In this document: piece by piece, positions 6,022 to 51,435 of the stretch
Numbering within the stretch: the stretch's first letter is position 1
How the letters are laid out: each line of letters starts with the position of its first letter
Origin: Desulfobacteraceae bacterium
GTDB lineage: Bacteria; Desulfobacterota; Desulfobacteria; Desulfobacterales; RPRI01
Reading direction: 5' to 3'
NCBI GenBank assembly: GCA_011391695.1
Contig: JAABQB010000008.1
Coordinates: 2,719 to 66,718 of the forward strand
DNA length: 64,000 nucleotides
Position numbers and translations under genes: made by a program
Notes under the pieces: generated by a model
What the model saw: the letters and a program-made list of their open reading frames with translations, nothing else
The model's database searches: none
What the model was told of the DNA's origin: nothing

Positions 6022-6142
6022 GAGACCTCTATTTTACTCTGTTTGCATAAGACTTTGGGTTCTGGTCTCTGGTTTCATAAACCCAAGTCGTTATTATCGC
6101 CTTTTTGGACTTGAGCAAAAACGGAAGTTCTAAAAAAGTCTC
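6022..6142 (-). mobile_element. Degenerate MITE copy (GAGAC-terminus family)
   Basis: Minus strand GAGACTTTTTTAGAACTTCCGTTTTTGCTCAAGTCCAAAAAGGCGATAAT aligns with the 6253-6395 element. The other end is GAGGTCTC. Confidence 0.6.
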
Positions 6143-6148
6143 AAGGTA

Positions 6149-6221
6149 TGGGCCCACCTGGGATCGAACCAGGGACCGACCGGTTATGAGCCGGTGGCTC
6201 TACCAGCTGAGCTATGGGCCC
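6149..6221 (-). tRNA. tRNA-Ile2 (anticodon CAT, lysidine type); CCA not encoded
   Basis: GGGCCCATAGCTCAGCTGGTAGAGCCACCGGCTCATAACCGG...GGGCCCA. The acceptor stem and position after rpoD favour Ile2 over Met. Confidence 0.88.
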
Positions 6222-6252
6222 TCAACACACCTTAACGCCTGACTTTCTATAT

Positions 6253-6395
6253 GAGACCTTTGCATAGCACCCCCTTTTGCCCGACTACTGTGTCAGGCTC
6301 AAATTCTAATCCTCGAAATACTCCAATGTATTCCTGCGGTTAAAATTATCGCCTTCCTTGTACTTGGCCAAAATTGGACGTTCTTCAAAGGTCTC
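6253..6395 (-). mobile_element. 143-bp MITE with IS5-like terminal inverted repeats
   Basis: Ends GAGACCTTTG / CAAAGGTCTC, flanked by TATAT on both sides. No ORF. Homologous copies at 6022-6142 and 51098-51353. Confidence 0.8.
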
Positions 6396-6420
6396 TATAT
6401 TTGTATTGATACTTTGTCAA
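6392..6420 (-). promoter_or_regulatory. Putative sigma70 promoter of tRNA-Ile2, -10 region interrupted by MITE
   Basis: Perfect TTGACA at 6420-6415. The -10 position 17 nt away falls on the MITE junction. Confidence 0.5.
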
Positions 6421-6456
6421 GCTCTACATTTGAAGGCTTCGTAAAAATTCATTCTT

Positions 6457-50963: not shown

Positions 50964-51000
50964 AACTCGGAAAGCCGTTATTTTATTCAACAAGATCGCA

Positions 51001-51072
51001 ATTCCCGTGAAAAAGGGAATCAGGTTGTTTTGGTGCTTTCTATATGTCATTCCCGTGAAAACGGGAATCCAG
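51001..51072. repeat. Two REP/dRS3-like palindromes ATTCCC-N8-GGGAAT
   Basis: ATTCCCGTGAAAAAGGGAAT at 51001 and GTCATTCCCGTGAAAACGGGAATCCAG at 51046. Confidence 0.8.
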
Positions 51073-51097
51073 TTTCTTTTATATGAAGTCTCGCAAT

Positions 51098-51353
51098 GAG
51101 AGCTTCGCAGAACATTGAAGCTCCCCGCAGCAAGCTACGGGGAATCTTCGACCGTAGGGAATAGCGTCTATTTTTAATTCGCTCGCTAACCCCGCTGCAA
51201 GCAGCGAGGAATGCGCTCGCTGTTTCGGCTCAATTTTGCTCAAGTTCAAGGAAGGCGGTAATTTTAACCACAGGAATACATTTAGTATTTCGAGGATTAA
51301 AATTTGAGCCTGACGAAGAAATCGGGCAAAAGGGAGTGTTATGCAAAGGTCTC
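51098..51353 (+). mobile_element. GAGAC-family MITE interrupted by a nested element
   Basis: Left end GAGAGCTTCGCAGAAC. 51235-51353 aligns with the reverse complement of 6253-6395 and ends ATGCAAAGGTCTC. Confidence 0.75.
51114..51234. mobile_element. 121-bp nested non-autonomous element ('element A')
   Basis: Ends ATTGA/TCAAT; two internal CCCCG..CAAG..CG(G/A)GGAAT hairpins; partial second copy at 56606-56638. Confidence 0.65.
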
Positions 51354-51360
51354 ACAATAA

Positions 51361-51435
51361 GGGCGGTTAACTCAGCGGGAGAGTGCTACCTTCACACGGT
51401 AGAAGTCACTGGTTCAAACCCAGTACCGCCTACCA
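51361..51435 (+). tRNA. tRNA-Val (CAC)
   Basis: GGGCGGTTAACTCAGCGGGAGAGT; anticodon arm CTACC-TTCACAC-GGTAG; ends CCTACCA. Confidence 0.95.

Follow-up and report, generated by a model that had tools for sequence, protein, structure and literature searches.

An IS5-family MITE with biased orientation in tRNA leaders and spacers of an uncultured Desulfobacterales lineage

Background

In bacteria, MITEs are mostly regarded as neutral debris between genes. Some MITE-type repeats, the Correia repeats of Neisseria and the ERIC repeats of enterobacteria, are co-transcribed as long RNA hairpins and have orientation-dependent effects, but we know of no preference of Correia or ERIC repeats for tRNA spacers. 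In eukaryotes, yeast Ty3 and Ty1 and Dictyostelium TRE insert just upstream of tRNA genes, which serve them as safe havens. These are retroelements guided by Pol III factors; they insert at fixed distances, and nearly all of their copies are found at tRNAs. IS5-group elements usually make target duplications of 4 bp.

A terminal dodecamer, GAGACCTTTGCA, is listed for ISNme1 and for IS5-derived MITEs (PMC4596501). Elements with such ends were encountered next to tRNA genes in the stretch of DNA analysed here, a window of 64,000 nt corresponding to positions 2719-66718 of its contig. The assembly from which it was taken, that of a Desulfobacteraceae bacterium, comprises 2.8 Mb in 116 contigs and is 98% complete.

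Results

Element copies in the window

Four tRNA genes were detected in the window by ARAGORN: a tRNA with anticodon CAT at 6149-6221 (minus strand), tRNA-Ala, tRNA-Val(CAC) at 51361-51435 (plus strand), and tRNA-Leu. The CAT tRNA, also found with Rfam and lacking an encoded CCA, is labelled Met(CAT) by ARAGORN. Its identity as tRNA-Ile2 is plausible, because the other two CAT tRNAs look like initiator and elongator tRNAs and because the genome contains a strong match to PF01171, the PP-loop domain family that includes TilS.

A full element of 143 bp with terminal inverted repeats, GAGACCTTTG...CAAAGGTCTC, is located at 6253-6395 on the minus strand, 31 nt upstream of the tRNA(CAT) gene, and has 29 matches in the genome with 84-100% identity. 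It belongs to the subfamily designated A, and its minus strand is the sense running with tRNA(CAT). The identical pentamer TATAT is present on both sides, at 6248-6252 next to the tRNA and at 6396-6400 on the promoter side. On the other side of the tRNA, 6 nt past its 3' end, lies a decayed copy of the sister subfamily B (6024-6142, minus strand), which aligns to other B copies over the right ~50 nt and part of the core. The third copy, at 51098-51353 on the plus strand, is flanked by GCAAT (51093-51097) and ACAAT (51354-51358) and ends 7 nt before the tRNA-Val gene. [quoted passage not shown]

In this respect the initial annotation of the window, made from the sequence alone, proved accurate: the 143-bp element with its TATAT flanks, the third copy ending at 51353 in front of a tRNA starting at 51361, and the same orientation of all three copies relative to their own tRNAs were all confirmed, and the degenerate copy described downstream of tRNA-Ile2 is real, aligning to the ~180-nt subfamily B. 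A fourth copy is situated 1.4 kb past the end of the window with no tRNA nearby. Searches against Rfam returned tRNAs only; the element matches no RNA family known there.

Other repeats are found in the same surroundings. The tRNA-Val leader contains two CGTC-tagged REP-type hairpins, ATTCCC-N8-GGGAAT, at 50997-51079. This hairpin class, which includes dRS3 of Neisseria, has been defined before (PMC3733652). Such hairpins (CGTCATTCCCG-loop-CGGGAATCCAG) have about 44 matches across the genome, in which inverted pairs with a distance of 53 nt are frequent, and across congeners the tRNA-Val leader carries one to five units. A 334-aa protein combining an IS200-like Y1 transposase domain with a DnaA-C-type helix-turn-helix is encoded downstream of a MITE copy on another contig (C35:10087-11091, locus L364), and is possibly the REP-associated transposase for these hairpin repeats. 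A third MITE-like family, C, of about 150-190 nt with ends like ACGGCTTCGTAAAAAGTCATT, was seen at loci L138, L141, L176, L187 and L190. A solo 27-mer of it lies at 6429-6455 of the window by the rpoD stop codon; full copies are present by rpoD in congeners G001 and G003 and in the tRNA-His/tRNA-Arg spacer of G004, G014 and G002.

A MITE family of IS5 origin

BLAST searches against the whole assembly revealed 27 full A copies, seven full B copies and fragments, with 84-100% identity. The 2.8 Mb contain about 36 loci in total, with copies of 143 or ~180 bp, all without a transposase. Subfamily B (~180 nt) shares the first ~37 and the last ~50 nt with A. Its core is different and consists of short hairpin-forming 8-mer units of the GGTTTCTGG type in inverted arrays, as at C50:4594-4773 and at 6024-6142 of the window. 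B may therefore be an A-type MITE with a hairpin cassette of 8-mer units nested inside. The target duplication is 5 bp, variable in sequence, and perfect in 13 of 33 copies, and empty sites were found in congeners. From the variable 5-bp duplications and the many non-coding copies it follows that the element is a mobile MITE; by its ends it is a non-autonomous member of the IS5 family with the subfamilies A (143 bp) and B (~180 bp).

The IS5 assignment had already been suggested from the termini, and it is borne out by intact elements with the same ends. Intact elements of 1.2-1.3 kb, for example in Dehalococcoidia and in a genome of the same order, share the termini and encode an IS5-family transposase (NF033581, 306 bits; DDE_Tnp_1 and DUF772), and GAGACCTTTGCA is the terminus of ISNme1 (PMC4596501). 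A decayed IS in a congener is identical to the MITE over its first 16 nt and similar to it over ~37 nt. In the 98%-complete assembly studied, the search for an autonomous partner failed: its 116 contigs contain neither paired ends at a distance of 0.4-4 kb nor a complete transposase, although such a partner may have escaped detection, since repeats are often left unassembled. The sole trace of a transposase in the assembly is a gene for a 174-aa N-terminal fragment.

Members of the MITE family were detected in 29 of 41 related genomes, including all 16 congeners sampled and 12 of the 24 sampled genera of the order outside the genus, and the MITE has spread through an uncultured Desulfobacterales lineage. 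A scan of 596 Gb for the exact 16-mer terminus gave matches in many phyla. Since about 280 matches are expected by chance, single matches were ignored, and paired ends and full-length BLAST hits were used instead. At five loci in Dehalococcoidia/Chloroflexota (L004, L040, L053, L065, L066) the 16-nt terminus marks intact IS5-family elements of ~1.2 kb. The same terminus is found there on MITEs of ~100-126 bp with unrelated interiors, and 11 copies occur in one 8-kb stretch.

Association with tRNA genes

Five of the 36 copies are located within 35 nt of a tRNA, where 0.24 would be expected if copies were placed at random in the 405 kb of intergenic DNA (P ~5e-6); counted as three loci, the adjacency has P ~0.002. 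Accordingly, the association is real, and the genome-wide distribution of the copies is not independent of tRNA genes. The five are the A copy upstream and the B copy downstream of tRNA(CAT), the A copy upstream of tRNA-Val, and two copies on contig C39, an A copy separating tRNA-His from tRNA-Arg and a B copy, truncated on the left, directly upstream of tRNA-His. The other 31 copies (86%) lie away from tRNAs, for the most part a short way upstream of protein genes. When six other genomes were sampled without bias, 3-4 of ~165 copies proved to be tRNA-adjacent (~2%, ~3 times the expectation). Distances to the tRNA vary, with 0, 4, 5, 7, 12, 28 and 31 nt upstream and 6-58 nt downstream. Regarding the marks of a tRNA-targeting element, orientation is constant, but most copies are not at tRNAs and their position is not fixed.

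That a common MITE simply happens to be near tRNAs in this window is highly improbable. It is true that only three tRNA loci of the genome are involved and that most copies are found elsewhere, but the P values by copies and by loci are low, insertions recur independently in relatives, and the orientations, 12 of 12 in one count and 12:1 in another (see below), are too uniform.

The tRNA loci in congeners

Comparison of the tRNA loci among congeners indicated where the insertions have occurred. At the rpoD-tRNA(CAT) locus, 14 species show the arrangement TTGACA, an AT-rich box 15-17 bp downstream, about 25 nt and the tRNA, the two motifs being at a fixed distance from the tRNA gene. In the window, the putative -35 hexamer is TTGACA at 6415-6420 (minus strand); a strict consensus scan called no Ile2 promoter. 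The A copy of the genome studied is inserted inside the AT-rich (putative -10) box with duplication of ATATA. The tRNA-proximal duplication belongs to this original -10 region, and at the far junction the last two bases of the element and the duplication (6394-6399) restore a minus-strand hexamer, TATAGA, that is -10-like. The copy is absent in the two closest relatives, with flanks 92-96% identical, and the 6248-6252 site is empty in G005 and G008. By comparison, the B copy downstream of tRNA(CAT) is judged to be old: it is longer in G010, decayed in the genome studied and reduced to a ~26-nt remnant of the termini in G005 and G008. At this locus in G001, such a termini-only B remnant has a fresh A copy next to it.

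The simple state of the tRNA-Val locus is TTGACT-N17-TTATTT about 22 nt from the tRNA. A copies are present in this leader at 7 nt from the tRNA in the genome studied (G000), at 12 nt in G003 and at 5 nt in G002, and G007 has a relative with variant ends at 28 nt. At tRNA-His/Arg, the promoter is predicted as TTGAAA-N17-TAGAAA; the B copy upstream of tRNA-His, which has lost its left end, starts 5 nt past the -10 box, a state common to six species. The oligo-T spacer of 7-9 nt between tRNA-His and tRNA-Arg holds an A copy in the genome studied (TTTTT duplicated), a deleted A copy in G001 and an unrelated repeat of ~180 nt in three species. According to the order-wide scan, the spacer is also occupied in other families of the order. 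Assemblies tend to break at these tRNA loci.

Judged by conservation, the upstream copies appear to sit between the promoters and their tRNAs. The tRNA copies are polymorphic, often recent, and therefore are not conserved cis-elements. Retention as a cis-element in tRNA processing or expression, one of two readings offered in the initial annotation, is not supported: the closest relatives lack the Ile2 upstream copy, the conserved putative promoters of the tRNAs lie outside the element, and a promoter-like hexamer of the element itself falls on the least conserved alignment column.

Orientation and position of the copies

All 12 independent tRNA-adjacent events have one orientation, such that in the direction of tRNA transcription the end GAGACCTTTGAAGAAC comes first and the end ...GTTATGCAAAGGTCTC last. 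A pattern scan of 401 genomes of the order, using two patterns, one per orientation, with distance ranges of equal width, yielded 12 co-oriented cases and one reversed case next to tRNAs verified by ARAGORN. A bias in the same direction is seen in spacers between protein genes on the same strand, where co-oriented and reversed copies number 20:5 in the genome studied, 48:26 in six relatives and 68:31 in total (P = 2.6e-4), the gene contexts being taken from a crude home-made gene caller. One genome, G040, shows no bias (six co-oriented, eight reversed).

The two ends behave differently towards gene boundaries. A left end (GAGACCTTTGCATAAC) turned towards a gene start usually leaves 12-36 nt to the start codon, a position immediately outside the ribosome-binding site; turned towards a gene end, it is often 5 nt or less from the stop codon and sometimes supplies part of it. 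The right end shows no closeness to gene boundaries.

Signals within the element that might act on neighbouring genes were considered and rejected. A Shine-Dalgarno-like GGGGGTG with an ATG lies 13 nt inside the left end, and about 9 of 100 co-oriented copies give an open reading frame, as expected from frame chance. In a possible internal outward promoter (TTGTCC, then GATAAT/TAATTT), the third base of the -10 hexamer coincides with the least conserved alignment column, and a consensus promoter scan detected nothing within the element. The search for terminators in the disfavoured orientation returned one weak 5-bp hairpin versus 0.5 expected by shuffling. The downstream genes have no function in common, encoding among others an epimerase, L35, MvhD, HypF, an acyl-CoA dehydrogenase and an E1-beta-like protein.

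A hairpin conserved on one strand

The whole element folds as one rod hairpin. For 6253-6395, the predicted RNA fold of the minus strand, the sense of the tRNA, has -53.9 kcal/mol versus -40.2 kcal/mol for the plus strand, and the strand equivalent to the minus strand here gives the better fold in 27 of 27 copies of the genome. RNAalifold applied to 61 distinct copies from seven genomes gave 38 pairs with 97.7% of the cells paired and 15 pairs compensated, and the same pairs on the opposite strand were 88.2% paired; G.U pairs numbered 236 versus 18. These figures overstate independence and inflate the strand asymmetry somewhat, the copies having common ancestry and the favoured strand having served to derive the structure. 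All five pairing measures were better than in 500 of 500 shuffles and in every slid control. In a separate count on 109 copies with a structure derived from the consensus, 213 G.U stood against 60 A.C, or 24 against 8 by columns. The direction of the asymmetry in pairing is clear. RNA of the favoured sense is G-rich. That of the disfavoured sense is C-rich (C/G = 1.65) and looser, and would have the properties expected of a Rho loading site.

Active targeting during transposition might produce the pattern of sites and orientations at insertion rather than by later selection: the cognate IS5-family transposase, or a host factor used by it, would steer the element in a set orientation to DNA that is close to promoters or strongly transcribed, or to oligo-T spacers. 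Several observations fit. Tiny spacers have been struck independently, the 7-nt His-Arg spacer in several families and the tRNA-Val leader three to four times; two insertions are at, or 5 nt past, a putative -10 box; of the two ends, it is the left one that keeps close to gene boundaries (12-36 nt from starts, about 5 nt or less from stops); and the target sites show a weak NNTNT motif, which precedes A-rich sequence and has a left flank rich in pyrimidines. Furthermore, E. coli IS5 has been reported to prefer destabilised DNA at promoters (PMC5493358). A corresponding preference for AT-rich or destabilised DNA was rejected here, however, the sites being no more AT-rich than other intergenic DNA (0.626 vs 0.605, P = 0.21). 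The 86% of copies off tRNAs and the unfixed distance also speak against targeting, and the same spacers have collected unrelated repeats, the REP hairpins and families C and D, for which a shared permissive site is simpler than several elements with the same target. Targeting would also leave the conservation of a strand-specific hairpin unexplained. As a full account, we consider it unlikely. The suggestion of tRNA-targeted insertion in the initial annotation therefore holds in part: the association is real and the same spacers were struck repeatedly in relatives, but the bulk of copies elsewhere, the variable distances, the sharing of spacers with unrelated repeats and the ~2% in six genomes count against it.

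A conserved gene for a transposase N-domain

Outside the window, the 174-aa fragment mentioned above is encoded at C70:4281-4805 (minus strand; L129:1483-2007) and consists of the DUF772 part of an IS5-family transposase only. The gene is single-copy and located beside an initiator-like tRNA in seven congeners, where it encodes 164 or 174 aa; pairwise comparisons give a dN/dS of 0.07-0.22 at dS of up to ~2. The N-terminus of the protein is similar to the one encoded by the decayed IS described above, which matches the MITE at its end. The gene looks like a candidate for a domesticated DNA-binding domain related to the parent IS of the MITE and, as such, for a domestication event.

The gene would have a place in an exaptation scenario, in which the RNA hairpin is a working 5'-leader device (for instance for processing, stabilisation or anti-termination) and the element ends are bound by the N-domain protein, making up a regulated set. 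Covariation and strand-specific pairing as in a structured RNA, the syntenic DUF772-only gene of seven species with its dN/dS of 0.07-0.22, and the constant placement just upstream of ribosome-binding sites would agree with it. On the other hand, copies are polymorphic between close species, the downstream genes are without common function, the internal promoter-like hexamer is at the least conserved column, and a tolerance filter acting on master copies can generate the covariation even if the host derives no function from it. Exaptation thus appears quite improbable. If true, it would mean a bacterial regulatory set of tRNAs and operon-internal genes wired by a MITE, like the networks built from domesticated transposases in eukaryotes.

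Discussion

The explanation that we favour, with some reserve, is a MITE that is tolerated in leaders and spacers and filtered by orientation, a tolerance filter being combined with some target preference. The MITE inserts with a 5-bp duplication into short intergenic spacers, and the copies that persist are mostly those in leaders and spacers that are probably transcribed: from the -10 box or start site to the tRNA, between two tRNAs, or 12-36 nt before a start codon. Their orientation would place the G-rich, tightly folded rod hairpin on the transcript instead of the C-rich, looser strand, which might be disfavoured through Rho-type polarity or instability. Pre-tRNA flanks are removed in maturation by RNase P and 3' trimming. 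Flanks of tRNA genes would be over-represented because leaders, spacers and trailers are cut away, so that an insertion which permits read-through by RNA polymerase costs little, and the need for read-through would explain both the single orientation and the strand-specific hairpin. Oligo-T or AT spacers at tRNAs may in addition be favoured targets; the ~20-fold enrichment and three independent insertions in a 7-nt spacer lean towards some real preference. The upstream copy at Ile2 landed in the putative -10 box, with the hexamer formed anew at its far junction, and is predicted to add ~148 nt to the pre-tRNA leader.

Several independent lines of evidence show that pre-tRNA leaders and inter-tRNA spacers are places where a DNA transposon repeatedly lands or survives, which parallels in bacteria the safe havens that retroelements of eukaryotes have at tRNAs. 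RNA-like evolution on one strand together with orientation along transcription indicates that selection acts on the effect of the insertion on the host transcript. The putative tRNA promoters in these genomes can be 150-330 nt away from the gene. The family also offers natural material for studying how insertions in leaders avoid polarity.

Comparison with known systems

The closest relatives by their ends are ISs of the ISNme1/IS1106 type and their MITEs, ATR of Neisseria and BrickBuilt of Porphyromonas gingivalis, which have the same terminal dodecamer GAGACCTTTGCA (PMC4596501). They are likewise non-coding, intergenic and present in many copies, with a parent transposase of the IS5 family. 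The interior of the MITE described here is unrelated, its variable duplication is 5 bp and not the 4 bp usual in the IS5 group, the whole element forms one strand-specific rod hairpin, and there is a bias to tRNA leaders. With Correia and ERIC repeats it has in common a hairpin conserved on the strand that is probably transcribed (97.7% vs 88.2% paired, 15 pairs compensated, values subject to the shared ancestry noted above). Transposase lineage and target are different. As in REP/RAYT systems, a dispersed hairpin repeat is found beside a single-copy conserved gene derived from a transposase; in this case, however, the gene corresponds to the N-terminal DUF772 part of a DDE transposase without the catalytic domain, and its tie to the repeats is only putative. 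With Ty3, Ty1 and TRE the shared feature is clustering upstream of tRNAs, but here it is a DNA MITE that clusters, with ~14% of its copies at tRNAs and at variable distances.
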